NCBI GenBank assembly: GCA_028688325.1
Contig: JAQTYI010000002.1
Location: 76,379-140,378, forward strand
Reading direction: 5' to 3'
Origin: Candidatus Portnoybacteria bacterium
Lineage (GTDB): Bacteria > Patescibacteriota > Minisyncoccia > Portnoybacterales > GWB1-42-6
Length of the DNA stretch: 64,000 nt
Below, piece after piece: positions 1,496 to 19,258 of the stretch. Position 1 is the first letter of the stretch. Each line of letters begins with the position of its first letter. The notes beneath the pieces are model-generated. The model saw only the letters and a program-made list of their open reading frames with translations, made no database searches and was not told where the DNA came from. The translations under genes were made by a program, and so were the position numbers.

Positions 1496-3589
1496 TTATT
1501 CCAATATCGCCTTAATCCTGCGCACACCGGCAGATGATGCTTCTTCCTTTACGATCTTAAATTTACCCAGCGCTCCAGTGCGCTCGGCGTGCGGCCCGCC
1601 GCAAATTTCGCGGCTGAATGCGCCTTCGACAAGCTCAGGCGATAAATCTTTATCCCCTGAGCGACCCCGCATTTGCGGGGGAGTCGAAGGGTTTTCTATT
1701 GTATAAACTTTCACCTTGTTTCCGTATTTGGCGTCAAATACGCCTGTTGCCCCGGACTCTTTCGCTTTCTCCAAATCCATCTCTTCGCAAACCACCGGCA
1801 AATCATTTTTTATCTGCTCATTAACGATATCTTCGACTTGCTTGATCTGCTCGGGCGTCATTTTCTGGCCGTAGGAAAAATCAAAGCGCAAGCGCTCGGG
1901 TGTGATGTTGGAGCCCTTTTGCGACACTTGCTCGCCCAAGACCTTTTTCAACGCCGCCAGCATCAAATGCGCGGCCGTGTGGTATTTCACCGTCGCCTCG
2001 CTGGCATCCGCCAGCCCGCCCTTGAACATCCCGGCCGAAGCGGCGCGGGAAAGTTCCTGGTGTTTTTTAAATTCTTCCTCAAACTCTTTCTTGAACTCTT
2101 TTTCATTTACAAGTAATGCCCTACCTGCTAATTCTTCTTGTATCATTTCCAGAGGAAACCCGTATGTCTGATATATAAAAAACGCTTTTTTTGCATCTAC
2201 TCTATTAAATTCTTTTATTTCTGCGCCCAAAGATATCTTCTGAGTACTACCAATAAGAAGCATCTTATTTAATTCTTTCAATCCCTGCTCCAGCGTTTCT
2301 TTGAATTTATTTTCTTCCTTGACTAACTGATGGATGATGAATTCCTTATTCTTTTCCAATTCCGGATAAGTATCTTTATATATTCTGACAACTTCGCCTG
2401 CGAGTTCAAAAGAAAAATTTTCTTTGATGCCCAGAGAAAAAGCGTTGCGCACCGCGCGGCGAATGAGCCGGCGCAAAACATAACCCGCGCCGACATTGGA
2501 AGGCGTGATCCTTTTTTCATCGCCCAGAATGAAAGCGGCGGCCTTGATATGGTCGGCGATAATGCGCATCGCGCGCGTTATATCTTCTCTCTCCTTTTGT
2601 AAATCTAACCCCCCTGCGCCCCCCTTTAAAAGGGGGGGAGATACAGGTTTTTCTCCCCCCTTATGCAAAAGGGGGGTTGGGGGGTTAATTTCCCCTCTTC
2701 TTAAAGGAGAGGGCTGGGACGAGATTATACCGTATTTTTTCCCCGACAATTCCTCTATCTTTCCTATCAGCGGCCAAAAGAGTTCGTTATCAAAAGCGTC
2801 TCTTTTACCATTTAACACGGATGCCGTCCGCTCCAATCCCATCCCTGTGTCCACATTCTTTTGCTTTAATTTTTCAAACTTGCCCGCCGTGATTTTATTG
2901 AATTCCATAAAAACATCATTCCAAACTTCCATCACTCGAAAATCATTAATTTCTTCGTCAAAAGTTTTTTGTAAAATGCCAAGTTGCGACTCGGTATCAT
3001 AAAACATTTCCGTGGCCGGACCGCACGGCCCGGTTTGCCCGGCCGGCCCCCACCAGTTATCTTTAGTAGGCATTGGAAAAATTCGGTAATTTTTATTACC
3101 GGCAATTTTTGTATTGTATGAGCAAACTTCTGCCTCAATCCCAGCAGAAGCAAAAACTTTTTTCCAAACTTCAATTGCTTCCGTATCCTGTTCGCTATTT
3201 TCATCACCCATAAAAACCGTAACATACAGCCGCTGCGGGTCCATTCCCAGCCATTCCTTGCTAGTCAAAAATTCCCAGCTCCACTCAATCGCCTCTTTCT
3301 TAAAATAATCGCCCAGCGACCAGTTACCAAGCATCTCAAAAAAGGTCAGATGACGGTTATCACCAACATCATCAATATCAGAAGTGCGAATACATTTTTG
3401 TGCATCACAAAGCCGCGAACTGGCCGGATGCTTTTCGCCCATAAGATAGGGCACCAGCGGATGCATGCCCGCGGTAGTAAAAAGCACGGTCGGGTCGTTT
3501 TCGGGAATCAAAGAAGCCGAGGGGATTGTCGTATGGCCCTTTGTCTTGAAAAATTCCAGATATTTTTGCCTCAATTCTTTTGCGGTCAT
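1496..3589 (-). CDS. alaS: Alanine--tRNA ligase (short form, 697 aa), carrying in-frame repeat insertions.
   Basis: N-terminal class II AlaRS catalytic motifs (FFKTKGHTTIPSASLIP, FTTAGMHPLVPY, RTSDIDDVGDNRHLTFFEMLGNWSLGDYFK). C-terminal editing-domain motifs (HTAAHLMLAAL, CGGPH). Confidence 0.9.
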   Translation of the reverse strand: MTAKELRQKYLEFFKTKGHTTIPSASLIPENDPTVLFTTAGMHPLVPYLMGEKHPASSRLCDAQKCIRTSDIDDVGDNRHLTFFEMLGNWSLGDYFKKEAIEWSWEFLTSKEWLGMDPQRLYVTVFMGDENSEQDTEAIEVWKKVFASAGIEAEVCSYNTKIAGNKNYRIFPMPTKDNWWGPAGQTGPCGPATEMFYDTESQLGILQKTFDEEINDFRVMEVWNDVFMEFNKITAGKFEKLKQKNVDTGMGLERTASVLNGKRDAFDNELFWPLIGKIEELSGKKYGIISSQPSPLRRGEINPPTPLLHKGGEKPVSPPLLKGGAGGLDLQKEREDITRAMRIIADHIKAAAFILGDEKRITPSNVGAGYVLRRLIRRAVRNAFSLGIKENFSFELAGEVVRIYKDTYPELEKNKEFIIHQLVKEENKFKETLEQGLKELNKMLLIGSTQKISLGAEIKEFNRVDAKKAFFIYQTYGFPLEMIQEELAGRALLVNEKEFKKEFEEEFKKHQELSRAASAGMFKGGLADASEATVKYHTAAHLMLAALKKVLGEQVSQKGSNITPERLRFDFSYGQKMTPEQIKQVEDIVNEQIKNDLPVVCEEMDLEKAKESGATGVFDAKYGNKVKVYTIENPSTPPQMRGRSGDKDLSPELVEGAFSREICGGPHAERTGALGKFKIVKEEASSAGVRRIKAILE
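1653..1693. repeat. GC hairpin insertion in the alaS editing domain (ccctgagcga-ccccgcatttgcggggg-agtcgaaggg), related to the CTGAGCG/CGAAGG family.
   Basis: Palindrome ccccgcatttgcgggg flanked by ctgagcga / tcgaagg arms; encodes an extra STPPQMRGRSGDKD-type segment just before the CGGPH motif. Confidence 0.55.
2607..2718. repeat. Three tandem GC-stem hairpin units inserted in frame in alaS, encoding SPLRRGEINPPTPLLHKGGEKPVSPPLLKGGAGG.
   Basis: cccccctttaaaaggggggg, ccccccttatgcaaaagggggg and ccctcttcttaaaggagaggg units, each a C-run / T(A/T)A-loop / G-run palindrome. Confidence 0.7.
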
Positions 3590-3661
3590 TCTCGTTTAAT
3601 CTTAACAATTCAAATTCGTTTAGTAAATACGGCGATTGTCGTTTTAAAATAAATAAAGCTC

Positions 3662-3690
3662 TTGACTTCAAAAATAACTTGTGCTAAATT
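3662..3690 (+). promoter_or_regulatory. Sigma70-like promoter (TTGACT-17-TAAATT, TGn-extended) driving a non-coding ~460-nt region.
   Basis: ttgact tcaaaaataacttgtgc taaatt. Confidence 0.5.
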
Positions 3691-3697
3691 ATAAATA

Positions 3698-4157
3698 ATT
3701 CATCGTGTTCTTTCAATTCGGGAGCAATCCCAGAAAGGAGAATGCTTATTTGCTTGTTTCGGTCCTCAGTATAACTCTCGCTTTGGCCTGATATCCGTAA
3801 AAATCGTATCGGGAAAAGCGAATTTGAGGCAACCGGCCCGGATGGCCACAACCAAAGGGAGGGACTATTATGTTTCTACGAGCCGAACTTTGGCCCCCAT
3901 TTTGCCCGCATTATTTTGCCAGTTAGAACAATCTTCTAAGGCAAAGTGGGGGCTGGGAAATTCCCCGGACTATTTACAAGGCAAAAAACCGAATATCGTT
4001 CCTTGTCCGCCTTCCGCGCGGCAAAAAATGGACATCGCTTATCCGCGATGCCGTCCCTAATCCCCATTCATGATGCCTGGCTTTGTCCAAGCAATAAACA
4101 TTGAATCGCGAGGCGGGACAAATTCAAGGGCTCCCCTGAAAAGGAGCCCTTTTTATT
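3698..4157 (+). ncRNA. Candidate non-coding transcript of unknown class, bounded by a promoter and an intrinsic terminator.
   Basis: No ORF with an SD; promoter at 3662-3690; terminator hairpin gggctcc-cctgaaaa-ggagccc + T-tract at 4128-4158. I could not match RNase P or tmRNA motifs. Confidence 0.3.
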
Positions 4158-4158
4158 T
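4128..4158 (+). terminator. Rho-independent terminator (T-tract overlaps the mnmA stop codon).
   Basis: gggctcc cctgaaaa ggagccc tttttattt. Confidence 0.65.
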
Positions 4159-5512
4159 ACAGAATAATTCCTCCTCCCAAAACCTCTCCTCCTTTATATA
4201 ATACCGCGCTTTGCCCGGGCGTTACAGCCCGCTGGGGCTTGGCAAAAACCACAAACGACTTGTGCCCCGACCGCAGCCGGATAGCGGCCCGCGCCCCTTT
4301 GCCCTGATATCTTATCTTAACCTTGCAGCTCAAAGGTAATTTCGGCGAATTGCCGCTCACCCAGTTGATATCGCCGACGAACATTTCTTTCTGCAATAGA
4401 TCTTTTTTATTACTGCTCACATATAAAATATTTTTCTTCGGGTCTTTTTTAACGACATAAAAAGGGCCCGGCCCGCCAATGCTTGCCCGCTGGCCGATGG
4501 TAAAAAGCGGCAAACCGGCATGCTGCCCCAAGATTGACTCTTTTGTCATCCCGGGCTTGACCCGGGATCCAGGCCCCTGGATTCCCGCCTCCAGTTTATC
4601 CCGCACTTGATGCGGGGCGGGAATGACAGATGCAAAAATAATTTTCCCTGGCTTCAATTTCAAGTGCTTTTTTAAAAAAGCATTGTAGTCCCCCGCAAAA
4701 CAGATATCGAATGACTGATGCGCCTGATGAGGCAGCTGCCATTTTTTGGCCAGCCCGTAAACTTCTTCTTTGGTATATCCGCCAAGCGGAAAAAGCACCC
4801 GGCTAATTTGACCTTGGTTTAAAAGGTGCAAAAAATACGACTGATCCTTCTGTTTGTCTTTGGCGGTGAAAAGTTTATACCCTAAGCTGTCATCCTGAGC
4901 GATAGCGAAGGATCTCCCGCGCATGCGGGCCGACATTCGGCGAAGATTCTTCGCTTCACTCAGAATGACACTCATAGATTTTATTTGCGCATAATGGCCC
5001 GTAGCGATATAATCCGCGCCCAGTTTTTTGGCGCGCGCCAAAAACAGCCCGAATTTTATCCGGGGATTGCAGACCACGCAGGGATTGGGCGTTCTGCCCG
5101 CGCGAAGCTCGGCCAGAAAATAGTCCACGACCTCGCGCTTGAATTCTTTGGAAAAATCAAAAATGTAAAAGGGGATGCCCAATTTTCCGGCCACCAGCCG
5201 CGCGGCCGCTTCGCTTTCCGCGGAGCAGCAAGCATTTTCCGATCCGCGTAGATCCGCGTCCTCAAGATCCGCGTCTATCCGCGGTTTCCAGAAACGCATA
5301 AAAACCCCGGCCACATCATAGCCCTGCTCTTTAAGCAAAGCCGCGGCCACCGAAGAATCAACTCCCCCGGATAAGCCGACAAAGACACGCTTGCCGGCGC
5401 CTCCGGCTTTCCCGGAGCGTAATCGAGGAGATAAGCCCGCCGATGCCATTTTTCCTTCATTTTTTTGCATACCAGATAGTAGAAATTCGGCTGTGTATAA
5501 AATCCGCCTCAA
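4157..5512 (-). CDS. mnmA: tRNA-specific 2-thiouridylase MnmA, 451 aa, expanded by three in-frame repeat insertions.
   Basis: PP-loop VGLSGGVDSSVAAALL, then GVFMRFW ... C ... LGIPFY, KDQSYFL and a C-terminal MnmA beta-barrel. Length exceeds the typical ~360 aa because of inserts at 4544-4628, 4889-4970 and 5241-5284. Confidence 0.8.
   Translation of the reverse strand: MRRILYTAEFLLSGMQKNEGKMASAGLSPRLRSGKAGGAGKRVFVGLSGGVDSSVAAALLKEQGYDVAGVFMRFWKPRIDADLEDADLRGSENACCSAESEAAARLVAGKLGIPFYIFDFSKEFKREVVDYFLAELRAGRTPNPCVVCNPRIKFGLFLARAKKLGADYIATGHYAQIKSMSVILSEAKNLRRMSARMRGRSFAIAQDDSLGYKLFTAKDKQKDQSYFLHLLNQGQISRVLFPLGGYTKEEVYGLAKKWQLPHQAHQSFDICFAGDYNAFLKKHLKLKPGKIIFASVIPAPHQVRDKLEAGIQGPGSRVKPGMTKESILGQHAGLPLFTIGQRASIGGPGPFYVVKKDPKKNILYVSSNKKDLLQKEMFVGDINWVSGNSPKLPLSCKVKIRYQGKGARAAIRLRSGHKSFVVFAKPQRAVTPGQSAVLYKGGEVLGGGIIL
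4544..4628. mobile_element. MITE-like palindromic element, family A (TGTCATCCCGGG ... CGGGAATGACA), inserted in frame in mnmA.
   Basis: Terminal inverted repeats tgtcatcccggg / cgggaatgaca, with an internal gacccgggatccagg-N-cctggattcccgcc module shared with the copy at 24614-24733. Confidence 0.7.
4889..4970. mobile_element. MITE-like element, family B (GTCATCCTGAGCGATAGCGAAGGATC ... GATTCTTCGCTTCACTCAGAATGAC), in frame in mnmA.
   Basis: 26-bp imperfect terminal inverted repeats around a cccgcgcatgcggg palindrome. 82 bp, not a multiple of 3, so the in-frame junction is not resolved. Confidence 0.7.
5241..5284. repeat. Short tandem repeat GATCCGCGT x3 (plus a partial copy) inside mnmA, encoding RIDADLEDADLRGS.
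   Basis: gatccgcgtagatccgcgtcctcaagatccgcgtctatccgcgg. Confidence 0.7.
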
Positions 5513-5720
5513 TTACCTTGACCTGCCGAACTCTATAATTTTATCAAATTTTGCCAGCCAACGATAAATCGGCTAAACTGCCGAATTTTCACTATCTGGC
5601 ATAGAATAGTTTTAGCGCATAAATCCCCTCTTGGCAAATTAAAAAAATTGTAGTATAAAGAAACCAGATGCTTAGACGGCATTTTTAAATTTAATTAAAG
5701 CAATCCGAATCTACGAGTCA

Positions 5721-5790
5721 CATCCGAATGCTCCTAATGGAATTCGGATGGGCGCTTTCGGATAATGTCCTGAGCGGGGCGAAGGACTTT
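5721..5790. repeat. Degenerate family-B-like element plus a 9-bp-stem hairpin in the efp 5' region.
   Basis: catccgaat ... attcggatg hairpin (5721-5750) and gtcctgagcggggcgaaggac (5767-5787). Confidence 0.5.
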
Positions 5791-5806
5791 GCGCTATTTG
5801 GATGCT

Positions 5807-6373
5807 ATGATCAACTACAACGAACTCAAACCGGGTGTTTTTTTCGTGATGGACGGCGAACCCTATGAAGTCCTGGAATTCGGCTTTATGCGCATGCAGC
5901 AAAGAAAGCCGGTCGCCCAGACCAAGATCAAAAATATGCTCACCGGCAAGGTACTTAACCGCAATTTCCAGCACACCGACAGCTTCCAGGAAGCGGAGAT
6001 AGATTATAAAAAAGTTAAATTTTTATACGCCCACCGCGACAAATTCGTTTTCTGCGAGATGGATAATCCCTCGGCGCGCTTTGAGCTTTCCCAAGAAGCC
6101 ATCGGCGACAAGGCAAAATTTTTCAAACCCAATTCGGAAGTTGAGGTCGTGAAATTCGAAGATAAGCTCATCAATGTCGAGCTGCCCATAAAAATGCAGT
6201 TTAAGGTCATTGAAGCTCCCCCGTCCATTAAAGGCAACACTGCCCAGGGCGGCAACAAGGCCGTGAAAATCGAGACCGGCGCCATGATCAATGCGCCTCT
6301 CTTTGTTGAAGAAGGCGACATTATCGAGGTTAACACCCAAACGGGCGAATACTCCGGAAGAGTGAACAAATAG
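5807..6373 (+). CDS. efp: Elongation factor P.
   Basis: MINYNELKPGVFFVMDGEPYEVLEF ... three-domain EF-P architecture. The start is trimmed from the track ORF (5789) to the Met that aligns with EF-P N-termini. Confidence 0.9.
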   Translation: MINYNELKPGVFFVMDGEPYEVLEFGFMRMQQRKPVAQTKIKNMLTGKVLNRNFQHTDSFQEAEIDYKKVKFLYAHRDKFVFCEMDNPSARFELSQEAIGDKAKFFKPNSEVEVVKFEDKLINVELPIKMQFKVIEAPPSIKGNTAQGGNKAVKIETGAMINAPLFVEEGDIIEVNTQTGEYSGRVNK

Positions 6374-6397
6374 TTCAGCTAACAGTTAACAGTCAAC

Positions 6398-6430
6398 AAA
6401 AAACACCTTGCAGATGCGAGGTGTTTTTTT
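6398..6430. terminator. Bidirectional intrinsic terminator between efp (+) and the VirD4-like gene (-).
   Basis: aaaaaacacc ttgcagatgcga ggtgttttttt. Confidence 0.55.
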
Positions 6431-6483
6431 ATAAAATATCTTTATTATTTTTGTTTACTGTTATCTGTTTTCTGTTTGCTGAT

Positions 6484-8472
6484 TCACAGTTCCGCCGTTT
6501 CCCCCGGCTTCAGGTCTTTCATATCACCCTGACTCGCCGGCTGATTTTTTTGTTCCGGCATTTTTTCCGCGGATCTGGCAACCCCGTAAAATTTATCGTC
6601 CCCGTAGAGCTTTTCGCCACGAGGCGCAGCGCCTGGCGCGGCCGGGCCCACCACTTCATTCAGCGCGCTGCGCAATTCCGACAGATTCGGGCCGGTCCGC
6701 GGTTTTTTGATCGCAAACCTGGCTGGCTCGACGCGAGGGGCAAACTCGGGCATCTTGCGGCCGGTCGCCTCGCTCAGAGAGATGGTCGGGCCGGTTTCTT
6801 TTATGACCGGTCCGCTCTCATTTCTCACTCTTTCGTTAAAACTTTGGCTCTCGCCAAAGCGCTGAGGTGCGCTTTGGCTAATATTTTTCTTCAACCCGTC
6901 AACCTTAGGCGCGCCGGGATTTGGCGCCTGACTGCGGACTTTTATTAAGCAGTCCTTGCAATAAACAGGCCTTACGCCGTCGGGCTTAAAATTCAATTCC
7001 ACTCGCTTGCCGCATTCGAAACATTTGTCAACATATATCGGCCCACCCGCAACGCCAGCAATGCGGCCTGCCTGGCGAAGGGAGCTAACCGGTTGTTTGG
7101 CCAGTTGCGGCCTTTCCGAAGCGCGGCCCTGCGTCTGAGGCAAAGAATATCTTTTTTCGCCTTCTTCGCTTTCTTCTTCCACAAATCCGCTCCAACGCGC
7201 AATCTTCTCTTCCACTTCTTTGCGCGATAAGCCCCCGTAGCGCTCGCGGGAAACTTTGATTATCTTTTCCCGGTGGCTTTTTTCCGTGCGCTCTATCGGC
7301 GCCAGAGTCGTGGCTGAAAACGGCCGCGAGGAAAAACCATTTATCATTAATTTTAAATAAACCTGGGCAAACCCCAAGCCAACCAGGTCGTCAGCGACAA
7401 ATTCCGGCGAAAATTCTTTTTCCAAAAACTCTGCGTCCTCCGCCCCCACGCGAAAAACTATTATCGTGCCCACATTGCCAAAAACCGCGTCGCGCACCCT
7501 GGTGCTGGTGTCTGTAGCCAGCTGCCCGATGTATTGGTGCGCTAAAACAAGATTCAAATGATACTTTCTGGCCTCGGATAAAATATTGGCGAAGCTGTCT
7601 GTGGCAAAATTTTGGAATTCGTCCACATACAGATAAAAATCTTTTCTTTCATTTTCCGGAACATTGACCCGCGACATGGCAGCCAGCTGAATCTTGGTTA
7701 TCATCATGGCGCCAAGCAGCGCCGAAGCGTCCTCGCCGACCTGGCCTTTGGATAAATTCAGTATCAGAACTTTTCCTTCGTCCATCACTTTTCGCGGATC
7801 AATGGTGGATTTGGTCTGGCCCACAATATTGCGAATCAGGGGATTCGTTAAAAATTGCCCGACTTTGTTTTGGATGGGAGAAATGGCCTCCACTTCAAAA
7901 TTACCCTTATATTTTGAAAATTCATCCACCCAAAAACTTTTGACCACCGGATCTTTAACTTTATCCATCACCTTGGCCCGGTATTCTTTGTCCACGAGCA
8001 GCCGCATGATGCCAAGAAGCGTGGCGCCCGGATATTCCAGCAGCGCCAAAACCGCGTTTCGCAAAACATATTCCAAGCGCGGCCCCCAACTCTCGGCCCA
8101 AATCTTCTTGAACACGCCGATGAGCCCTGAAGCCACCAAATGACGGTGTTCGGAATCAACTTGTTCCATAACATTAAAAGCGATGGGGAAATCCATATCC
8201 GCGGGATTGAAATAGATGACATCGTTAACACGGTTGGACGGCACGAAATCTATCATCTTTTCGGCAAAATCGCCATGCGGGTCCACGATCGCCAGGCCCT
8301 TGCCCGCCTGAATATCCTGCTTGGCCATATTTTCCAGCAATGTTGTTTTACCTGTACCGGTTTTTCCCACGATATAAACATGGCGCTGCCTGTCGCCGTT
8401 TTTTATGCCGAACTTGCGCTTTTGGCTGCGAAAATCGGTCTCGCCGATAGTTGTGATATATTCTTCTGCCAT
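6484..8472 (-). CDS. VirD4/TraD/TrwB-like type IV coupling-protein ATPase with a C-terminal C4 zinc ribbon and a GC-rich disordered tail.
   Basis: Walker A VGKTGTGKTTLLENM, Walker B-like LYVDEFQNF, TrwB_AAD-like ARKYHLNLVLAHQYIGQL. Zinc ribbon CFECGKRVELNFKPDGVRPVYCKDC. The last ~150 codons are markedly more GC-rich than the rest of the gene. Confidence 0.6.
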   Translation of the reverse strand: MAEEYITTIGETDFRSQKRKFGIKNGDRQRHVYIVGKTGTGKTTLLENMAKQDIQAGKGLAIVDPHGDFAEKMIDFVPSNRVNDVIYFNPADMDFPIAFNVMEQVDSEHRHLVASGLIGVFKKIWAESWGPRLEYVLRNAVLALLEYPGATLLGIMRLLVDKEYRAKVMDKVKDPVVKSFWVDEFSKYKGNFEVEAISPIQNKVGQFLTNPLIRNIVGQTKSTIDPRKVMDEGKVLILNLSKGQVGEDASALLGAMMITKIQLAAMSRVNVPENERKDFYLYVDEFQNFATDSFANILSEARKYHLNLVLAHQYIGQLATDTSTRVRDAVFGNVGTIIVFRVGAEDAEFLEKEFSPEFVADDLVGLGFAQVYLKLMINGFSSRPFSATTLAPIERTEKSHREKIIKVSRERYGGLSRKEVEEKIARWSGFVEEESEEGEKRYSLPQTQGRASERPQLAKQPVSSLRQAGRIAGVAGGPIYVDKCFECGKRVELNFKPDGVRPVYCKDCLIKVRSQAPNPGAPKVDGLKKNISQSAPQRFGESQSFNERVRNESGPVIKETGPTISLSEATGRKMPEFAPRVEPARFAIKKPRTGPNLSELRSALNEVVGPAAPGAAPRGEKLYGDDKFYGVARSAEKMPEQKNQPASQGDMKDLKPGETAEL

Positions 8473-8585
8473 ATAATATTATAAGATTTGACTGTTGAAT
8501 TCTCTCCGCGCATACGAAAAACTTTAGAACAAAATCGAGATGAGCAAGGCGTAAAATTTGCGTGTTGTGGTGGGGCCCCGACCGT

Positions 8586-8605
8586 CAGGTCGGGGCGTTG
8601 AGGAT
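8586..8605. repeat. GC-rich hairpin (ccccgacc gtca ggtcgggg) between the membrane-partner gene and the VirD4-like gene.
   Basis: Perfect 8-bp stem; no U-tract on either strand. Confidence 0.6.
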
Positions 8606-8668
8606 AGTAAATTTAGACGAGCGAATCCGATTTTGTTAAGGTTTTATCGTCGCGCGGCGGTTTTTCTG

Positions 8669-8696
8669 GTTCTCTTTTGCCCGGGCAAAAGAGAAC
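8669..8696. repeat. 28-bp perfect palindrome gttctcttttgcccgggcaaaagagaac in the same intergenic region.
   Basis: Perfect dyad symmetry. Confidence 0.7.
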
Positions 8697-8737
8697 GAAC
8701 TAATTTCACGATTTCAGGAAGCAAATCCGAGCGATTT

Positions 8738-10015: not shown

Positions 10016-10098
10016 TTTTTTAAAAAACTTGGTTTCGCCCTCCTTTTTTTTTGCGGGACGCGCGACGACCTCCGTTTTTTTGAATTATATCAAAAAAC

Positions 10099-10131
10099 AG
10101 ACCGCCTCGCAACAAGCGAGGCGGTCAAAAA
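10099..10131 (-). terminator. Intrinsic terminator downstream of the HARE-HTH gene (A-tract / 11-bp stem / T-tract).
   Basis: gaccgcctcgc aacaa gcgaggcggtc, flanked by A and T runs. Confidence 0.7.
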
Positions 10132-10133
10132 AG

Positions 10134-11207: not shown

Positions 11208-11253
11208 TATTGTCCGGCCTCTCCCGGCCGGGTATAAATATTACGATATGTCT

Positions 11254-11282
11254 AATATAGCACGGGGCTATAAATCTGTCAA
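11254..11282 (-). promoter_or_regulatory. Sigma70-like promoter for the HARE-HTH gene (TTGACA-17-TATATT on the minus strand).
   Basis: Reverse complement reads ttgaca gatttatagccccgtgc tatatt. Confidence 0.6.
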
Positions 11283-11323
11283 CTGCCGCTATAAAATATC
11301 AACCTGTCTTAAAAAATAAAAAA

Positions 11324-11351
11324 CATCGCCCTCTGCTTGGCGATGTTTTTT
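11324..11351. terminator. Intrinsic terminator downstream of secF.
   Basis: aaaaaa catcgcc ctctgctt ggcgatg tttttt. Confidence 0.65.
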
Positions 11352-11363
11352 CTACCGTTGACC

Positions 11364-12296
11364 CTATTTCCCCATCTTTTTTGCTATGCGCTTTTGCCGC
11401 CAATCCTCCCAGGTAACCAGCAAAGAGCTGGCCACGAAGATCGAAGAATATGTTCCGAAAAACACGCCGATCATCAAAAGCAAAGAGAAATATTTCACGC
11501 TTTCTCCGCCAAAGATAAAGATGGCCAGAAGCGTCAAAAACACCGTCAAGGAAGTATTGATGGAACGGGTCATTGTCTGGTTGATACTGATGTTGACGGT
11601 ATCTTTGAAATTTTCGCCCAATCCTTTGCGCAGATTCTCGCGGATGCGGTCAAACACGACGATGGTGTCGTGCACCGAAAAACCGAGAATCGTTAAAAGG
11701 CCCGTCACAAACAACAAGTCAATTTCCACTCCTAAATAATGCCCCAAGACGGAAAAAACGCCGATCGGAATGAAGATATCATGAAAAAGCGCGATGATGG
11801 CGGCCAGGCCGTATTTCCAGGAGGCCACTGGACGGGAAACTTTGCGGAAGGCAAAAGCGATATAAATAACTATCAAAAATAACACCGTGATGATAGATAG
11901 ATAAGCCCGGCCCTTGAGCTCTTCACCCACCACTGGCCCGATGGAATCAAATTTCTTTTCTTCCAGAGCACCCAAGGAAGCCAATGCCTGCAACGCCCGC
12001 TGATGAGAGGGCTCATCCAGGTCTTTAGTCCTGATGATAATTCCCCTATCGCCAGCCGACTGAACGGCCGCGTCACCCAGGCCCAAACCGGACAACACAT
12101 CCTTGATAGCTTTCGCTTCCGGCCGCGCCTGCGCAAACTCTATTTCAATGAACGAGCCGCCGGTAAAATCGATGCCGAATCTCAAAAGATGGCCGGATTG
12201 GAGAAATCCCCAATACAGCGTGCTGAAAATCCCCGCGCCAATGAGCAGGATGGAAAAAGTGTAAAATATTTTTCTACGGCCAACAACATTTATCAT
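11364..12296 (-). CDS. secF: Protein translocase subunit SecF.
   Basis: SecF topology and motifs (FGIDFTGGS, 6 TM helices); adjacent to secD. Confidence 0.85.
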   Translation of the reverse strand: MINVVGRRKIFYTFSILLIGAGIFSTLYWGFLQSGHLLRFGIDFTGGSFIEIEFAQARPEAKAIKDVLSGLGLGDAAVQSAGDRGIIIRTKDLDEPSHQRALQALASLGALEEKKFDSIGPVVGEELKGRAYLSIITVLFLIVIYIAFAFRKVSRPVASWKYGLAAIIALFHDIFIPIGVFSVLGHYLGVEIDLLFVTGLLTILGFSVHDTIVVFDRIRENLRKGLGENFKDTVNISINQTMTRSINTSLTVFLTLLAIFIFGGESVKYFSLLLMIGVFFGTYSSIFVASSLLVTWEDWRQKRIAKKMGK

Positions 12297-12377
12297 AGTG
12301 TTCGCTAATAACGCTAATTGTCAACGAATAATGCTAATAAGATTTTTTATTCGCGTTATTAGGATTTTAAATTCGCA

Positions 12378-13829
12378 TTATTGGTGATTACTCTTAATTC
12401 CGAACAACCACAATCTCTTTTCCATTTTCTCGCTCACAAATAATTTCAAGAAATTGCGCGTCACGAATATGGCCGAAAACATGCTCACGGCAATGCCGAT
12501 GGCCAAAGTCAGCGCAAATCCCTTAATGATGCTTGTGCCGAGCCAGAATAAGACCAAACAAGTGATCAATGAGGAAGCGTTGGAATCGCGGATGGAGGTC
12601 CAGGCGCGCTTAAAGCCCTCATCGATCGCGCCGCCCAGCGACTTGCCCCAGCGCAACTCCTCTTTTAAGCGTTCAAATATCAAAATATTGGCGTCCACCG
12701 CCATGCCGACCGACAGAATGAATCCGGCGATGCCCGCCAAAGTCAAAGTGACAGGAATCAATTTGAATATCAGTAAAACGATGGCCGAATAGATGGCCAG
12801 CGCCACCACCGCCATAAGTCCCGGCAAGCGATACCAGAATATCATAAACAACGCCACGGCCAAAATGCCTATCATGCCGGCAAACAAACTTTGCTTCAAT
12901 GATTGTTGGCCCAGTGACGCTCCGATACTCTGCTGGCTGATGAGTTTAATCGGCACGGGCAAGGCGCCGGCATTTAAGCGCTGGACCAATTGCTTGGCCT
13001 CGTCATATTTGAAATTACCGGTGATCTGCGCCTTGCCGCCGGTGATGGCTTCGTTAACGCGCGGCACGCTAATGGGCGAGCCGTCCAGATATATGGCTAC
13101 TTTTTTGCCGACATTTCGGCCGGTGATATCGGCAAAAAGTTTGGCGCCCTCGGCATTGAATTCCAGCCCCACCAACGGCTCGTTGGTATTCTGATTGAAT
13201 TCCAAGGTTGATTTGGCCAGATATTTTCCCGTGAGCTCGGTGGGCTTGAAATACGGGTCTTCCGTAAAATTTTTCTGCTGTTCTGGCAGCAAGGCCTTGT
13301 ATCTGTCCAGTATCGCCTGCGTTTCGGCTGCTATTCTTTCCTCGCGGAAATCAAGAAAAGGGGTCTCGCCTATCATGGCAATTGCCTGATGGATATCTTT
13401 AATGCCCGCCAACTCCACTATCAGGCGATAATGGCTTCCCACGGTATCCACCTGCACCAAGGGCTCGGCCACTCCGAATAAGTTTACGCGCCGTTCGATG
13501 ACATCGCGCACGCCCTGCATTGAATTGGTATATTGGCTTTTATCAATGCTGCTCAAATCCGCCTCATAGACCAAATGCGTGCCGCCCTGCAAGTCCAGGC
13601 CCAGCCGGAAAGGCAAATTAAAATACTGCGGGATATTGGGAAGCGTCTTTAAAACCGCCGACTTGTTCTTTTGAGCATTTATCCAATCAACCGGCCTGTC
13701 CCAAGCGCGCGGATAGATGGCAAAACCGGCGATGGCGGCCAATAAAAAAATCGCCACCACGGTCCAAGCGGTTTGCGACATCTTTTGTTTGGTGAATATG
13801 GCCGAGAAAAATCTTGACGCGAAATTCAT
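12378..13829 (-). CDS. secD: Protein translocase subunit SecD.
   Basis: LGLDLQGGTHLVYEADL, periplasmic domain and C-terminal 6-TM bundle typical of SecD. Confidence 0.85.
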   Translation of the reverse strand: MNFASRFFSAIFTKQKMSQTAWTVVAIFLLAAIAGFAIYPRAWDRPVDWINAQKNKSAVLKTLPNIPQYFNLPFRLGLDLQGGTHLVYEADLSSIDKSQYTNSMQGVRDVIERRVNLFGVAEPLVQVDTVGSHYRLIVELAGIKDIHQAIAMIGETPFLDFREERIAAETQAILDRYKALLPEQQKNFTEDPYFKPTELTGKYLAKSTLEFNQNTNEPLVGLEFNAEGAKLFADITGRNVGKKVAIYLDGSPISVPRVNEAITGGKAQITGNFKYDEAKQLVQRLNAGALPVPIKLISQQSIGASLGQQSLKQSLFAGMIGILAVALFMIFWYRLPGLMAVVALAIYSAIVLLIFKLIPVTLTLAGIAGFILSVGMAVDANILIFERLKEELRWGKSLGGAIDEGFKRAWTSIRDSNASSLITCLVLFWLGTSIIKGFALTLAIGIAVSMFSAIFVTRNFLKLFVSEKMEKRLWLFGIKSNHQ

Positions 13830-13928
13830 TGTTAAAGCAAAATGAAAAAATAATCTCCTTCCATAATAACCATCGGGACTTAAAAAGTCAATAAAAAAAC
13901 GGCCAAACTATAAGCCCGGCCGCCAAAG

Positions 13929-14420
13929 TTAAATTTCACTGGCCTCGCGCAGATCTTTATGGAGAATCTTCATGGACTCTTTATTGTTGTACAAAACCCG
14001 TCCACGGATCTTTTTTCCTTCCAACACCAAAGGCAGCCAGTGCCTGTCAATAGTCCACATCTCATGATACGGAATATCTTTGATATCAAACCATTCCGGC
14101 CTCATCATTTCGTCCGTCTCTTGCGGCTCGCCGGAAAACTTCTTAACCACAAAGATATGTGTTTCGTTGACTATTCCCGGCTCATTGGCAAATCTAAACT
14201 CGATAAAACCAACCTTCTCTCTCGTCTCAACAACCAAACCGGATTCATCCTTGGTCTCGCGATCCAGACATTCTTCGATTGTTTCCCACTCTTCCACATG
14301 CCCGCCAAAGCCATTCCATTTGCCAACGCCCATCCTCCCTTTTTTCTTAAGGCCCAGAAGGATAAAAGATGGCCGGGAAATTATGCCGAGAGTCAAAACT
14401 ACCTTCATATCGTCCTCCAT
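13929..14420 (-). CDS. NUDIX hydrolase (MutT/NUDT1-like).
   Basis: GKWNGFGGHVEEWETIEECLDRETKDESGL Nudix box. Confidence 0.75.
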   Translation of the reverse strand: MEDDMKVVLTLGIISRPSFILLGLKKKGRMGVGKWNGFGGHVEEWETIEECLDRETKDESGLVVETREKVGFIEFRFANEPGIVNETHIFVVKKFSGEPQETDEMMRPEWFDIKDIPYHEMWTIDRHWLPLVLEGKKIRGRVLYNNKESMKILHKDLREASEI

Positions 14421-14429
14421 AAAAAGAGC

Positions 14430-14954
14430 TTAATTAAATTTCACTTCCTCTTCGCTTTTGCCATTCAAAATCTCGTCCACCATCCTTATCTCATCCAAGA
14501 TGCCTTTTATTAAATCGTATTTTTTGCATTCTTCATAGCTTGCCCAAATAAATTCGGTCGCATCCTCATCCAGCTTCACTTCGCCGGATTTATACGGCGC
14601 GTAAAAACTCAAAGTGATAACAGGTATGCCATCCGGCCTGAGGAACGCCAAGTCCAGCAAGTATTTTATAAAACCCACTTCCAAATTAACCTCTTCCTTG
14701 ATTTCCCGGCGCAATGAAGTATATAAAGCGTAATACCAATGCCCGTCGTCGGTTGTCGGCGGCGTAGTCGCATAGTCGTCCGTTTCCAACCCGCCGCCCG
14801 GCACGGTCCATTTGCTCGGAAAAACCTTTTTATGCGGACTGCGCTTGGTTATCAGATATTTATATTTAACTTGCCCTGAGCCCGTCGAAGGGCCATTTTC
14901 TTTCTTATGGATGATGGCGGTGGAAACGATGCGATGCAATTCCTGGTTTGGCAT
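14430..14954 (-). CDS. NUDIX hydrolase with an unusual insertion inside the Nudix box.
   Basis: PGGGLETDD[YATTPPTTDDGHWYYALY]TSLRREIKEEVNLEV: GX5E ... REUXEE elements present but split by a ~20 aa insert. Confidence 0.6.
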   Translation of the reverse strand: MPNQELHRIVSTAIIHKKENGPSTGSGQVKYKYLITKRSPHKKVFPSKWTVPGGGLETDDYATTPPTTDDGHWYYALYTSLRREIKEEVNLEVGFIKYLLDLAFLRPDGIPVITLSFYAPYKSGEVKLDEDATEFIWASYEECKKYDLIKGILDEIRMVDEILNGKSEEEVKFN

Positions 14955-14977
14955 TGATATATATTAATATTAGAAAT

Positions 14978-15322
14978 TTATTTTAATTCCCATGCTATCA
15001 AACCATACTTTTTTATTTTATCACGATAGCTCGGGAAGCCATAATACATTTTCCGCAATTCCGTTTCGGTCTTAACCGCCGGATTAATCTGGCTCGGCCG
15101 GTATTTTTTAAGCAGCGCGGCAATCGTCGGAAAAACCCGCGCCGCAACGACTTGTTTTATAAATTTTTTCCGCCCGCACGACAAACAAACTTTATCTCCC
15201 GTCTGTATTTTTCGATATTTCTCCGTTGCGGCGCGGGTCTCTATTTTCTTCTCCCCCGACTTTATCACCTCAAAAATATCGCGATTTTCCGCTCTGAATT
15301 TAATATTAATCCTGCCTTTCAT
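14978..15322 (-). CDS. ASCH/PUA-like domain protein.
   Basis: Small beta-barrel-like protein MKGRINIKFRAENRDIFEVIKSGEKKIETR ... GDKVCL. Start trimmed to the internal Met so it does not overlap the upstream gene. Confidence 0.45.
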   Translation of the reverse strand: MKGRINIKFRAENRDIFEVIKSGEKKIETRAATEKYRKIQTGDKVCLSCGRKKFIKQVVAARVFPTIAALLKKYRPSQINPAVKTETELRKMYYGFPSYRDKIKKYGLIAWELK

Positions 15323-15326
15323 AACA

Positions 15327-15871
15327 TTAATGTGTAAGAGAATATATCTGCGTATCATAACCTCTTGTTTCCTCGTCGTCCCGGGATAAACTCAAGGATT
15401 CTATAACCTCAAAAATTTCATTCCTGATCTTTTGCGGATCGGCGTCTCTCTCGGTTAATTTTTCAATCTCAATGAAATTGCCCAATTTTTCAACCTCATC
15501 AAGGCAAATTGCATATTCTCCAAGCTTCCCTGACCGCCGCAGTTTTTTTGCTTCTACGGCCGGAGTGTATCCTAAAGCAGTGAGAATTTTATTCATCGCC
15601 TCGGGATCATTTATTTCCGTTTCATACTCAAGATTATCCATCTCTCCAGATCTTTGCTGCTTAAGATTGAGTTCGGCAATATTTTTTGAAAAACGCATGC
15701 GGATGATAATGTCCCCCTCTTTTGAGCTTTGCCATTCTTCCTTGCTGTTTCCTTTTGAATATATAACATCGCGCTGGCTGATGGGGCCGGAAAGAAGGCA
15801 TCCTTTTTCTTCAAGTTTTTTTGGATATCGTCCAGGTCGGAAATTTTAATTTTTATTTCTATTTCTCTCAT
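15327..15871 (-). pseudogene. CYTH-domain (CyaB/thiamine-triphosphatase-like) gene interrupted by a -1/+1 frameshift in a 7-nt homopolymer.
   Basis: N-terminal frame MREIEIKIKISDLDDIQKNL ends at a T7 run (15816-15822 on the plus strand). The alternative frame continues with LEEKGCLLSGPISQRDVIYSKG ... RMRFSKNIAELNLKQQ ... ICLDEVEKLGNFIEIE, matching CYTH motifs. The track shows two overlapping ORFs, 15611-15871 and 15327-15698. Confidence 0.55.
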
Positions 15872-15880
15872 ATTTTAATA

Positions 15881-16420
15881 TTATTTTCCGCTCCGCAAAA
15901 ATTCGCTTAATTTGTTCAGAGCGTTTCTCCTCATGCTTATCTCATTCTTTTCTTCCCGACTCATCTCCGCGAAAGTTTTTTCATAACCGTCGGGCAAAAA
16001 TATCGGATCCCAACCGAAATTGGTTTCGCCCTTAGGATTAACTATCCGCCCTTTTATCGCGCCCTCAAAAAAATAGATCTCTTCGCGATTTTTGGCATAG
16101 CCGATGATGGTTTTCGCCTCCGCCTTGTTGTTCCCCAATTTCTCGGCAATCTCGGCCAGGCCGTCATTTCCTATCGTCTGTAAAAACCATTTTATCAATG
16201 GCCCGGGCAATCCCTTCAGGCAATCAAAATACAGCGAAGTATCTTCCACTATGAATTCTCCGTCCGCATGATTGAACGCCTCGGTTAATTTTGTTTTTAT
16301 GATTTCCTTTGCGTCAATTTCCTGAATTTCCGGCAGATCGATATCCAGTTGCTCCACATCCGGCAAAATAGATTTTACTTCCTCAAATTTATTTTTATTC
16401 CCTGTAATAAAATAAATCAT
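15881..16420 (-). CDS. rdgB: Non-canonical purine NTP pyrophosphatase (RdgB/HAM1/ITPase).
   Basis: [14 protein letters not shown] ... FIVEDTSL ... GWDPIF motifs. Confidence 0.85.
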
Positions 16421-16429
16421 AATATTATT

Positions 16430-19108
16430 TTATTTTCCACAACACTTCTTATATTTCTTGCCGCTCCCACAAGGGCAAGGATCATTGCGCCCCACTTCCC
16501 CGTCTTTTTTCTCGGCCACAACCTGGCCAGAAATGATATTTTTAACTTCTCGCCTTTCAGCCGCCTGCTCGCTCATTATGCCGACTTTATAAATAGAGCC
16601 GACAAAGCTGCTCTGGATTGCGCCCAGCAGGCGCTGAAAAAGGCGCATGCCTTCGTTTTTATATTCCACCAGCGGGTCTTTCTGGCCGTAGGCGCGCAGT
16701 TTTACAGAATGGCGCAGATGCTCCATTTCGTCCAAGTGCTCCATCCAGAACATATCGATGGTGCGCAAATAGAACATTTTCTCGATTTCGCGCATACTGG
16801 CCTCACTGACCTCTTTTTCTTTTGTCTCGTAGGCCTGCCTGGCCGAATCGGACAAATATTTTTCCAGCTCTTCCTTGTTTTTAATTTCGGCCATCTTCTG
16901 CTCAGCATCGCTGGGCAGATTAAAGATCGCTTTGACACCCTCCTGAATTTCCGCCAGATTCCAATCCTCGCGATAATCGCCTGGCGCGTGAAAATCGATG
17001 ATCTTGGTTATTTCTTTATCGATTATTCCCAAAACCTCATCGCGCAAGCTATCGGATTCCAAAACTTCCAGCCGCTTGCGATAGATGGTTTCGCGCTGCT
17101 TATTCATCACATCGTCATATTCCAGAACATGCTTGCGAGTATCGAAATTAAAGCCCTCTATCTTGGCCTGCGCGTTCTCGATGGCGCGGGAAATCATTTT
17201 ATTCTCGATGGGCTGGTCTTCCGGAATCTGCATAACTTCCATCAGCCGTTTAATTTTATCGGGTGCAAAAATGCGCATCAGGTCGTCTTCCAGCGAAACG
17301 AAAAATTGCGAAGAGCCGGCGTCCCCCTGGCGGCCGGAGCGGCCGCGCAGCTGATCATCGATGCGCCGCGCTTCGTGGCGCTCAGTGCCGATGATATGCA
17401 AACCGCCGAGCGCGACAACTTCGTCGTGTTCTTTTTGCCAATTGTTTAAATCTCCCTCTTCGAGTCCTGTCGGCCTAACCCCTCCTAAAGGAGGGGAACC
17501 CGCATCGCCGCTCCCTCCCTTTAGGGAGGGCTGGGGAGGATTTTCATCAGGTCTTCCACCAAGAATAATATCCACGCCGCGGCCCGCCATATTGGTCGCC
17601 ACCGTCACCCCGCCCTTGCGGCCGGCCTTGGCGATTATCTGCGCTTCCCGCTCGTGGTTTTTGGCATTCAACAATTCATGCGGAATGCCTTCTTTTTTCA
17701 AAAATTGGCTTAATAGTTCATTTTTTTCTATGGAAACCGTTCCCACCAGCACCGGCTGGCCCGCGTCGTGCCGGTTTTTTATCTCCCGCGCCACGGCGAC
17801 AAATTTCCCGTGTTCGGTGCGATAAATGCTGTCGGGCATATCCACGCGCACCATCGGCTGATTGGTCGGCACGATAACGACATCCAATTTATAAACTTTA
17901 GAAAATTCCTCGGCGGATGTTAAAGCCGTGCCGGTCATGCCGGACAGTTTTTTATACAAGCGGAAATAATTCTGGAAAGTTATCGTCGCCAAGGTGCGCG
18001 ATTCTTTCTGCACGGGCACCCCTTCTTTGGCTTCCAAGGCCTGATGCAAACCTTCGCTGTAGCGGCGGCCCTGCATCAAGCGGCCCGTAAATTCATCAAC
18101 GATTATTATTTCGCCGTCTTTCACGACATAATCTTTGTCGCGCTTGAAAAGCGCTTGCGCGCGCAGCGCCTGCTCCAAGTGGTGCGCGTATTTTATCCCG
18201 CCTTCGGTATAGATATTTCCCATGCCCAAAATCTTTTCCACCTTATCTATGCCCTCTTCCGTCAAAGTGGCGGCGCGCATTTTTTCATCGAGATTGTAAT
18301 CAACATTTTCAACAAGACGCGGAGCGATTTTAGAAAAGGTCTCGTATAGTTTTCCCGAATCCTCGTCCGGCGCGGAAATTATCAAAGGCGTGCGCGCTTC
18401 GTCTATCAATATCGAGTCCACTTCGTCCACTATGGCAAAGTTATGTTTGCGCTGAGACATATCTTTCAATTCAGCCACCATATTGTCGCGCAGATAATCG
18501 AAACCGAATTCGTTGTTGGTACCGTAAGTGATGTCGGCGGCATAGGCCTCGGGCCGGCGGACTTCTTTTAGATTCGCCATCTCCACCGTAATCTCGTTCT
18601 TGTCCAACACCACGGGTTCATATATATAGGATCTTTCGTGTTGCAGGCAACCCACGGAAAGCCCCAACAAATTAAAAACCGCGCCCATCCAGTTGGCATC
18701 GCGCTTGGACAGATAATCGTTCACCGTAACAACATGCGCGCCTTTTCCTTCAAGCGCGTTAAGATATATCGCCAAAGTGGCGGTTAAGGTTTTTCCTTCG
18801 CCCGTTTTCATTTCGGCAATCTTGCCTTCATGCAAAACCATTCCGCCGATAAGTTGCGCGTCAAAATGCCGCTGGCCCAAAGCTCTTTTGGCCGCCTCGC
18901 GCGTCAGCGCGAAGGCCTCCGGCAAAATTTCATCCAGCGTTTGACCTTTTTGCAAACGCTCCCTGAGCTCCTGTGTTTTGTTTTTCAATTCCTCAACCGA
19001 AAAACGCCCGAACTCCGGTTCAAGCTTGTTTATCTGTTCAACGATGGTTTCGTATTTGGCAATGCTCCCCCCGCCCGCGTTGCCGAAAAAATTAGTTAAA
19101 AACGACAT
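16430..19108 (-). CDS. secA: Preprotein translocase ATPase SecA, with an in-frame palindromic-repeat insertion.
   Basis: Full SecA architecture (DEAD motor motifs, PPXD, HWD/HSD) and C-terminal zinc finger CPCGSGKKYKKCCG. Insert NPPQPSLKGGSGDAGSPPLGGVRPTGLEEGD encoded by 17478-17538. Confidence 0.95.
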   Translation of the reverse strand: MSFLTNFFGNAGGGSIAKYETIVEQINKLEPEFGRFSVEELKNKTQELRERLQKGQTLDEILPEAFALTREAAKRALGQRHFDAQLIGGMVLHEGKIAEMKTGEGKTLTATLAIYLNALEGKGAHVVTVNDYLSKRDANWMGAVFNLLGLSVGCLQHERSYIYEPVVLDKNEITVEMANLKEVRRPEAYAADITYGTNNEFGFDYLRDNMVAELKDMSQRKHNFAIVDEVDSILIDEARTPLIISAPDEDSGKLYETFSKIAPRLVENVDYNLDEKMRAATLTEEGIDKVEKILGMGNIYTEGGIKYAHHLEQALRAQALFKRDKDYVVKDGEIIIVDEFTGRLMQGRRYSEGLHQALEAKEGVPVQKESRTLATITFQNYFRLYKKLSGMTGTALTSAEEFSKVYKLDVVIVPTNQPMVRVDMPDSIYRTEHGKFVAVAREIKNRHDAGQPVLVGTVSIEKNELLSQFLKKEGIPHELLNAKNHEREAQIIAKAGRKGGVTVATNMAGRGVDIILGGRPDENPPQPSLKGGSGDAGSPPLGGVRPTGLEEGDLNNWQKEHDEVVALGGLHIIGTERHEARRIDDQLRGRSGRQGDAGSSQFFVSLEDDLMRIFAPDKIKRLMEVMQIPEDQPIENKMISRAIENAQAKIEGFNFDTRKHVLEYDDVMNKQRETIYRKRLEVLESDSLRDEVLGIIDKEITKIIDFHAPGDYREDWNLAEIQEGVKAIFNLPSDAEQKMAEIKNKEELEKYLSDSARQAYETKEKEVSEASMREIEKMFYLRTIDMFWMEHLDEMEHLRHSVKLRAYGQKDPLVEYKNEGMRLFQRLLGAIQSSFVGSIYKVGIMSEQAAERREVKNIISGQVVAEKKDGEVGRNDPCPCGSGKKYKKCCGK
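17478..17538. repeat. Two GC-stem hairpin units inserted in frame in secA, encoding PPQPSLKGGSGDAGSPPLGG.
   Basis: cccctcctaaaggagggg and ccctccctttagggaggg; same architecture and same PxLKGG peptide as the alaS units. Confidence 0.7.
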
Positions 19109-19177: not shown

Positions 19178-19178
19178 T

Positions 19179-19216
19179 CTTGGACACTTTTACGCTATAG
19201 CGTAAAAGTGTCCAAG
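19179..19216. repeat. 38-bp perfect palindrome, copy 1 (cttggacacttttacgctatagcgtaaaagtgtccaag), abutting the secA -35.
   Basis: Perfect dyad symmetry. Core cacttttacgctatagcgtaaaagtg is shared with copies 2 and 3. Confidence 0.8.
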
Positions 19217-19258
19217 AGACAGCCGACAACAACTTCTCTATCCCTCCAGTATGGACTC

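Follow-up and report, generated by a model that had tools for sequence, protein, structure and literature searches.

In-frame hairpin repeats in alaS and secA of a Candidatus Portnoybacteria bacterium as probable copies of a dispersed DNA repeat family

In 64 kb of DNA from an uncultured Candidatus Portnoybacteria bacterium (Patescibacteria; Candidate Phyla Radiation, CPR), referred to as the window in the following, two essential genes, alaS (encoding alanine--tRNA ligase) and secA, are interrupted by short hairpin-forming segments that remain in frame. Our data indicate that these hairpins are probably copies of a dispersed, non-autonomous family of DNA repeats that became inserted into the two reading frames. 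The inserts match a repeat family with copies in other genomes and in metagenomes, they are lineage-specific indels located in loops of the two proteins, their reading frames are open and their DNA is more strongly conserved than synonymous sites of the same genes.

When the entire window was scanned for perfect hairpins consisting of a homopyrimidine 5′ arm, a loop of 3–9 nt and a complementary homopurine 3′ arm, five loci were found, compared with 0.82 ± 0.86 in dinucleotide shuffles (maximum of 3 in 100), and every one of them falls in frame in either alaS or secA (table 1). The resulting in-frame peptides include ...SPPLLKGGAGG... and ...PQPSLKGGSGDAGSPPLGG.... A first-pass annotation of the window had placed hairpins at these sites and had given these peptides; the hairpins are real, the translations agree with what was written and the positions stand, but the extents had been drawn too short for the alaS insert as well as for the secA element with its flanks. 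An intein or intron was set aside as an explanation: the segments measure 12–45 aa, are devoid of catalytic motifs and, between orthologues, vary in length in steps of whole codons.

The AlaS insert is clearly not a general feature of this protein. In an alignment of the window AlaS with 120 homologues (121 sequences), the block at residues 288–332 is wholly missing in 96 sequences and occupied in 25, i.e. the query and 24 homologues, which carry 1–4 units at the same place, directly after ELSGKKY (e.g. PSQPSLNLRGG, ITSPQPSPSKGEG or NPPTPLLKGGAGGLDLQK). When the insert is mapped onto a neighbour-joining tree built from the core columns, at least 12 changes are needed to explain its presence and absence, compared with a mean of 23 (minimum of 19) after shuffling of labels, and the insert is thus clustered, yet has been gained or lost repeatedly. 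Within the insert, unit 3 is almost identical among the related loci L085, L086 and L087, and unit 2 is an extra unit, which also occurs in L087 and is absent from L085 and L086. Structurally, residues 284–337 take the place of just five residues (272–276) of E. coli AlaRS (3hxu), located between the catalytic and the tRNA-recognition parts. In an AlphaFold model with a mean predicted local distance difference test (pLDDT) score of 84, values below 50 are found at 290–328 and 640–654, which are the two inserts of this AlaS (for the second, see below); the insert is therefore modelled as disordered.

In SecA, the insert is common to the closest orthologues only (79–81% identity) and absent in others at 78–79%; in lineages further away, this spot is occupied by other inserts, among them, in P0145 and P0159, units belonging to the same family. 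For both secA and alaS, empty sites could also be read in DNA (L209, L210). In B. subtilis SecA (1tf2), a single residue stands in place of residues 519–563 of the window protein, at what we take to be the variable (VAR) site of NBD2. Lineage-specific indels in surface loops, as had been predicted, are therefore what is seen for both proteins, with the two sites amounting to 1–5 residues in solved structures.

In secA, the two hairpins form the interior of a single composite element with imperfect terminal inverted repeats. Over its entire length, this composite can be aligned with a copy from a related genome (L085, 2248–2325) that sits in intergenic DNA downstream of alaS, and the match takes in the non-hairpin flanks AAAATCCTCCCYAR and GGGGTTAGGGGAGATTT. 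It also aligns with the secA copies of L083 and L081, where the element reads AAAATCCTCCCCAG-CCCTCCC TAAA GGGAGGG-AG..spacer..-TCCCCTCC TTTA GGAGGGG-TTAGGGGAGATTTT. A secondary insertion of 18 nt, which splits the 3′ terminal repeat in the window, is found in L084 too and is absent in L081 and L083. The predicted peptides spanning the insert junctions are ...NPPTPLLHK... and ...PSLKGGSGDAGSPPLGGVR....

On a larger scale, when metagenome contigs were searched for the 5′ motif AATCCWCCYYARCCCTCC, at least 143 matches emerged on at least 120 contigs, with a hairpin following in at least 102 cases. The canonical form is AAATCCWCCCYAR-CCCTCCTTT-N4-AAAGGAGGG-AG...TCCCCYTTT-N4-AAARGGGG-WTWRGGGGRATTT, and half elements and tandem arrays are present too among the matches listed. 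A profile hidden Markov model (HMM) built from 99 metagenome units, none of which came from the window, matches the left unit of secA over its full length (17511–17544; E = 1.5e-7) and unit 1 of alaS (2690–2717; E = 0.016), and picks up only three units altogether in the window, counting full-length and partial ones. A count of genic and intergenic copies, which the first-pass annotation had proposed for the whole genome, shows that among the metagenome matches listed, ca 88–93% of the 102 hairpin copies are intergenic and 7–12% are in frame. Of these 102, 12 are flanked on each side by at least 60 codons of open frame, and 7 of the 12 reside in confirmed host proteins, i.e. Der/EngA, two Mur ligases (at different sites), a Wzy_C membrane protein, RsmA, MnmA and UvrC. 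The in-frame peptide of a Mur ligase (NPPQPSLKGGSENSPPPLGGVRGD) resembles the secA insert, that of UvrC (NPPSPPLHKGREKIASTPLVKGGAGGLRL) resembles the alaS insert, and MnmA is occupied at the same site in L087 and in a metagenome copy. Lineage-specific indels, further copies and the intergenic match thus all support the earlier proposal of an insertion in the manner of Rickettsia palindromic elements (RPEs).

No family was found in Rfam at the gathering threshold, and seven copy-rich loci gave sub-threshold hairpin matches only. With the 45-aa insert peptide, a word-index protein search returned no match and an exhaustive HMMER search against 1.84 billion representatives a single weak one; such peptide-level searches are uninformative because the segments are short and biased. 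A literature search found no description of this repeat family in CPR bacteria.

How these repeats are built suggests more than a simple hairpin. The basic unit of ca 35–40 nt consists of a C-rich pyrimidine 5′ arm and a G-rich purine 3′ arm, with a flank in mirror symmetry to the arm beside it (e.g. aaaTCTCCCCtaa-CCCCTCTtt or AAAGGGAGG-tta-GGAGGGattt), and composites of 65–100 nt often contain two units facing in opposite directions between imperfect terminal inverted repeats (AAATCCnCCC...GGGnGGATTT). Such a flank is complementary to the purine arm in parallel orientation, as a Hoogsteen third strand has to be. Among 102 informative hairpins outside the search pattern, 7-nt perfect mirror matches outnumbered direct ones by 29 to 3 in the upstream flank (permutation mean of 2.6, maximum of 8.1) and by 23 to 4 in the downstream flank (mean of 1.6, maximum of 5.6). 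Of the 102, 51 have a perfect mirror at one flank or both, with many different arm sequences (12 arm types listed). In the window, the left flank TCCTCCC of secA fits GGGAGGG as a parallel third strand in 6 of 7 positions. Judged from its layout, the unit is a potential intrastrand triplex, with AAATCCTCCCCAGCCCTCCCTAAAGGGAGGG and TCCCCTCTTTnnnnAAAGAGGGGCTAGGGGAGATTT as candidate triplex-forming sequences.

Table 1. Positions of host genes, inserts and repeat parts in the window.
Feature	Position	Strand	Sequence or extent	Basis
alaS (alanine--tRNA ligase)	1496-3589	-	697 aa	open reading frame (ORF) and translation
alaS insert 1 (three repeat units, in frame)	2594-2728	-	aa 288-332, 45 aa, IISSQPS...GGLDLQK	low-occupancy alignment block
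alaS unit 1 hairpin	2693-2713	-	CCCTCTCC TTTAA GaAGAGGG, imperfect; coding-strand flank before hairpin ..TCTCGTCCCAG; perfect hairpin 2693-2713, stem 6 bp	hairpin scan
alaS unit 2	2655-2686	-	flank AACCCCCCAA and hairpin CCCCCCTT TTGCAT AAGGGGGG; perfect hairpin 2655-2676, stem 8 bp	hairpin scan
alaS unit 3 (inverted type)	2601-2638	-	hairpin CCCCCCCTTT T AAAGGGGGG, linker CGCA, mirror flank GGGGGGTTAGATTT; perfect hairpin 2619-2638, stem 8 bp	
alaS insert 2 (editing domain, PSTPPQMRGRSGDKDLSPELVEG)	1623-1691	-	69-nt compound palindrome (CCCTTCGAC..CCCCGCAAATGCGGGG..CTCAGGG / CCTGAGC..GTCGAAGG)	
secA	16430-19108	-	892 aa	ORF and translation; product 100% identical to P0121, Candidatus Portnoybacteria
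secA composite element	17448-17544	-	5′ flank, hairpin 1, spacer, hairpin 2, 3′ flank; ca 97 nt	
secA left flank, terminal inverted repeat	17531-17544	-	AAAATCCTCCCCAG	alignment
secA hairpin 1	17513-17530	-	CCCTCCC TAAA GGGAGGG; perfect, stem 7 bp	hairpin scan
secA hairpin 2	17479-17497	-	TCCCCTCC TTTA GGAGGGG; perfect, stem 7 bp	hairpin scan
secA 3′ flank, terminal inverted repeat	17448-17478	-	TTAGG ... GGAGATTT, broken by 18-nt insertion	
secA secondary insertion (18 nt)	17456-17473	-	CCGACAGGACTCGAAGAG, splitting TTAGG / GGAGATTT	

Mechanistically, copies of the family would have reached two permissive surface loops by insertion, followed by local duplication of units. The targets would have been the linker between the catalytic and tRNA-recognition domains of AlaRS and the variable site in NBD2 of SecA. 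The inserts may have survived because C/T and G/A runs are free of stop codons in the frame used and the lengths are multiples of three, and read-through would yield disordered Pro/Gly-rich loops of presumably near-neutral effect. The DNA of the inserts, however, is conserved to an extent that does not fit purely neutral passenger DNA. Third codon positions in the alaS insert are 0.81–0.85 identical, compared with 0.46–0.62 at fourfold degenerate sites elsewhere in the gene, and the secA element is 84–92% identical to its L081 and L083 counterparts, with 51–56% identity to orthologues at fourfold synonymous sites of secA. Moreover, stems are kept and loops vary among the insert copies of relatives. 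Selection on the peptide alone is excluded because the DNA is more conserved than synonymous sites; this conservation rather requires a constraint on nucleic acid structure or homogenization by gene conversion among copies.

This conservation far above synonymous sites, together with stems that are kept as loops vary, also provides the best argument for the most serious alternative, i.e. that the inserts are domesticated and serve a selected nucleic-acid function, be it a programmed pause in translation at domain boundaries, caused by stable mRNA hairpins or triplexes or by runs of proline-rich codons, or the promotion of recombination by DNA structures. Their location at interdomain boundaries (the AlaRS linker and the linker between GD1 and GD2 of Der) and the fact that the same loops were struck in different lineages (SecA, MnmA) point in the same direction. 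Nevertheless, we consider domestication unlikely: most orthologues work without the insert; the copies decay, with hairpin 1 mismatched in L081 and the 3′ flank split by 18 nt in the window; the profile recognizes only its three full-length or partial units there; and the TMECO motif exhibits neither promoter or terminator activity nor a stable triplex in vivo in E. coli. With similar reserve, one can envisage an as yet undescribed, widespread family of the intrastrand triplex type in Patescibacteria and other uncultured bacteria, which would repeatedly colonize the same permissive loops (of AlaRS, SecA, MnmA, Mur ligase, UvrC, Der and RsmA) and would then be held there by selection at the nucleotide level. 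If so, the inserts would be domesticated structural nucleic-acid elements in coding sequence rather than junk, which might e.g. impose a programmed pause on translation where domains meet or act as hot spots of recombination.

A local de novo origin, by template switching or slippage in low-complexity loops encoding Pro and Gly and with the resemblance between sites being convergent, is considerably less probable still. C and G runs are indeed prone to slippage, unit number varies at a single site by local duplication and the alaS and secA copies show weak similarity, but such an origin is largely refuted by the end-to-end match of the secA copy, flanks AAAATCCTCCCYAR and GGGGTTAGGGGAGATTT included, to an intergenic copy, as well as by the E-value of 1.5e-7 for the secA unit against a profile of unrelated contigs and by the near-identical composite peptides in Mur ligase and UvrC. 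That the inserts are ancestral flexible linkers under selection at the protein level is very improbable: even though both sites are natural variable loops, the orthologue alignments refute it (96 of 121 AlaS sequences and close SecA orthologues lack the insert), a peptide does not need perfect palindromy in its DNA, third codon positions are conserved and the same DNA occurs in intergenic positions. Finally, an assembly or sequencing artefact at the error-prone C6–7 and G6–7 runs can practically be dismissed, since orthologous inserts are present in independent NCBI, JGI and ENA assemblies and the reading frames are intact.

The reading of the hairpins as copies of a dispersed, non-autonomous repeat family, which we thus prefer, has to contend with several observations of its own besides the conservation just discussed. 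The copies in alaS and secA are weakly alike in DNA, with a best local match of 14 nt (CCCAGCCCTC-CCT) that scores 21, compared with 14.2 ± 2.2 and a maximum of 26 in shuffles; direct homology between the two modules was rejected on these grounds, and calling them ‘near-identical’, as in the first-pass annotation, was an overstatement. What the modules have in common is architecture and family, not sequence, and they are connected only via the family profile and intermediate copies in other genomes. Beyond alaS and secA, the unit HMM finds no copy in the 64-kb window, so that the expectation of further copies was borne out in related genomes and metagenomes, in at least six other protein families, but not in the window itself. 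Likewise, the HMM finds no copy in two close relatives with empty sites, nor in 1.38 Mb of DNA taken from 80 diverse genomes, a control that consisted of a SecA-based contig scan with orthologues of at most 58% identity among the matches listed; by these three negatives, the family is patchy. No direct repeats indicative of target duplication were evident by eye, either in ca 10 intergenic copies or between filled and empty secA and alaS sites, the empty ones being too diverged for a firm verdict. Neither a candidate transposase nor a parent insertion sequence with the same ends turned up, with no search having been aimed at either. Mobility is deduced solely from the distribution of copies, because no target duplication and no candidate transposase were seen. 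As to the putative triplex, the respective flank of the right unit of secA is disrupted in the window by the 18-nt split, and the alaS flanks, being C6/G6 homopolymers, are uninformative for mirror symmetry.

Several additional observations concern the two host genes. By its homologues, AlaS of the window is a PF01411 plus PF07973 protein with a top identity of 71% in a protein search. This AlaS is not contained in a collection of 5.8 billion proteins (top match of 71%), whereas the SecA of the window was found there at 100%; the public record may annotate this alaS otherwise, e.g. as a pseudogene or with a different start. In two relatives, a conserved unit is located directly upstream of alaS (L086, 9129–9205; L085, 1–24), with AAAGGAGGG or AAAGGGAGG ca 12–15 nt before the annotated TTG start; the unit HMM found no copy upstream of alaS in the 64-kb window. 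A role of the left hairpin as an element of 5′ untranslated regions that sequesters the Shine–Dalgarno sequence by its 3′ arm AAAGGAGGG was rejected as a general property: a start codon lies 3–15 nt downstream of the left hairpin in just 4 of the 102 copies among the matches listed. In secA of L084 (1727–1830) and in uvrC of L200 (ca 970–1070), hairpin 2 occurs as a variant with a nested hairpin (..TTTARAGCTTGCCCYnnACTTGATnnGGGGAGGGG..), and since this form turns up in different genes of two genomes, it is itself a dispersed subfamily. The distribution of these sub-insertions, i.e. the 18-nt piece and the nested hairpin, is incongruent with protein similarity.

With respect to copies elsewhere, mnmA of L087 (1–420) contains 3–4 in-frame units (NSSQPPLNLRGGEIHPLPPFTKEGGIPPLNLRGGEGE), and mnmA of L122 a composite at the same site. 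Head-to-tail arrays resembling minisatellites were seen in L184 (ca 1400–2250; at least 12 units of 38 nt), L094 (4445–4560) and L229 (11214–11400; a composite of 81 nt). About 13 genuine copies reside on IMG/VR contigs classed as viral (L211–L230, e.g. L217, L219, L229 and L230), which could reflect a route of horizontal spread or misclassification.

The window also contains palindromes of other kinds. A hairpin in the editing (tRNA_SAD) part of alaS (1653–1693; –20 kcal/mol, z = –2.5) does exist as had been reported, but is merely the core of the 69-nt compound palindrome of insert 2, which shows low occupancy in the AlaS alignment and pLDDT values below 50 at 640–654, and it belongs to a family other than the C-run/G-run hairpins. 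Further members of the family of this second insert (CTGAGC...TCGAAGG) are a hairpin at 14873–14893 (GCCCTGAGCCCGTCGAAGGGC), in frame in a NUDIX-like ORF on the minus strand (14430–14954; peptide GPSTGSGQ), and a similar copy at 5770–5785 (5767–5787), seemingly between ORFs. A perfect palindrome of 40–48 bp (TCTTGGACACTTTTACGC TATA GCGTAAAAGTGTCCAAGA) is present in three copies (19178–19217, 19951–19998 and 20851–20890) in gaps between minus-strand ORFs and looks like an operator or another kind of repeat. Additional lineage-specific inserts were noted in AlaS (PSTTLGAG after LGNWSLGD; GAPALAGDGSLTEVRNPKDY) and in SecA (PSTDSGQG after APRLVENV; NAENSQREFSA...VPEAA at the VAR site), and several distinct repeat families thus appear to colonize CPR housekeeping proteins.

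If the dispersed-repeat reading is correct, repeats of the BoxC/PIT triplex type would be able to colonize the reading frames of essential genes, and the concept of ‘selfish DNA in proteins’ would reach beyond Rickettsia into the reduced CPR genomes. This could account for many Pro/Gly-rich length differences in CPR housekeeping proteins and calls for caution in annotation and phylogenetics, where the insert segments should not be taken for homologous protein sequence. Since insert DNA is conserved above synonymous sites, these genes may also provide natural test cases for non-B DNA or RNA structures that are tolerated or even used in coding regions.

Among known systems, the closest in behaviour are the RPEs, reportedly described by Ogata et al. 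in 2000. They are cited in PMC1779305 and PMC10969869. Like RPEs, the repeats reported here are dispersed palindromes that reside between genes as well as in frame in genes including essential ones (alaS and secA in the window; Der, Mur ligase, RsmA, MnmA, UvrC and Wzy_C elsewhere), where they occupy surface loops away from the catalytic core, are lineage-specific among orthologues and are predicted to be translated as an extra peptide. There is no sequence relationship, however, and the resemblance is functional, with no homology claimed: the units are homopyrimidine/homopurine hairpins with a mirror flank, of 35–40 nt (composites of 65–100 nt) rather than ca 100–150 bp, and their hosts are Patescibacteria and other uncultured bacteria rather than Rickettsia. 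In architecture, by contrast, the closest relatives are the BoxC/PIT/TMECO intrastrand triplex motifs, which are said to go back to Hoyne et al. in 2000. These motifs of E. coli and cyanobacteria also form inverted pairs, and triplex-type repeats are abundant in prokaryotic genomes according to a systematic survey; TMECO in E. coli is always intergenic, and its triplex was formed in vitro, whereas none could be detected in vivo (Holder et al. 2015, PMC4666352). The shared layout consists of a C-rich stem, a loop of 3–6 nt, a G-rich stem, a short linker and another G-rich stem mirroring the first (at the level of the family, in the 51 of 102 hairpins mentioned above), in single copies or inverted pairs that are multi-copy and patchy between related genomes. 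The first-pass annotation had not remarked on this parallel. The TMECO consensus CCCTCNCCC N3-6 GGGNGAGGG N3 GGGNGAGGG is not matched by the AAATCCWCCCYAR-CCCTCCTTT-N4-AAAGGAGGG found here and is approached on some high-GC contigs only, e.g. L113; and in contrast to the intergenic E. coli motif, 7–12% of the copies among the matches listed are in frame and all copies in the window are genic. REP/BIME elements, which lack target duplications, are likewise short GC-rich hairpins, single or in inverted pairs and mainly extragenic, but essentially never occur in frame in genes, and their GTAG or CGTC 5′ tetranucleotide is replaced here by a 5′ end of AAATCC. Coding palindromes in mitochondrial genes of Nematomorpha (PMC6649704) are perfect inverted repeats in frame in conserved protein genes as well, yet are organellar, much longer and not part of a dispersed intergenic family. 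Like MITEs and small repeats of enterobacteria, in which intragenic copies are documented (Delihas, PMC2759123, PMC2229807; reviewed in PMC10969869), the elements are below 200 bp, of non-coding origin and in part intragenic and in frame, and they end in imperfect terminal inverted repeats (AAATCCnCCCYAR ... YTRGGGnGGATTT); they differ in that no target-site duplication is evident by eye, the empty sites being diverged. A more precise label for the repeats would be a family of the BoxC/PIT-like kind whose composite copies resemble MITEs.

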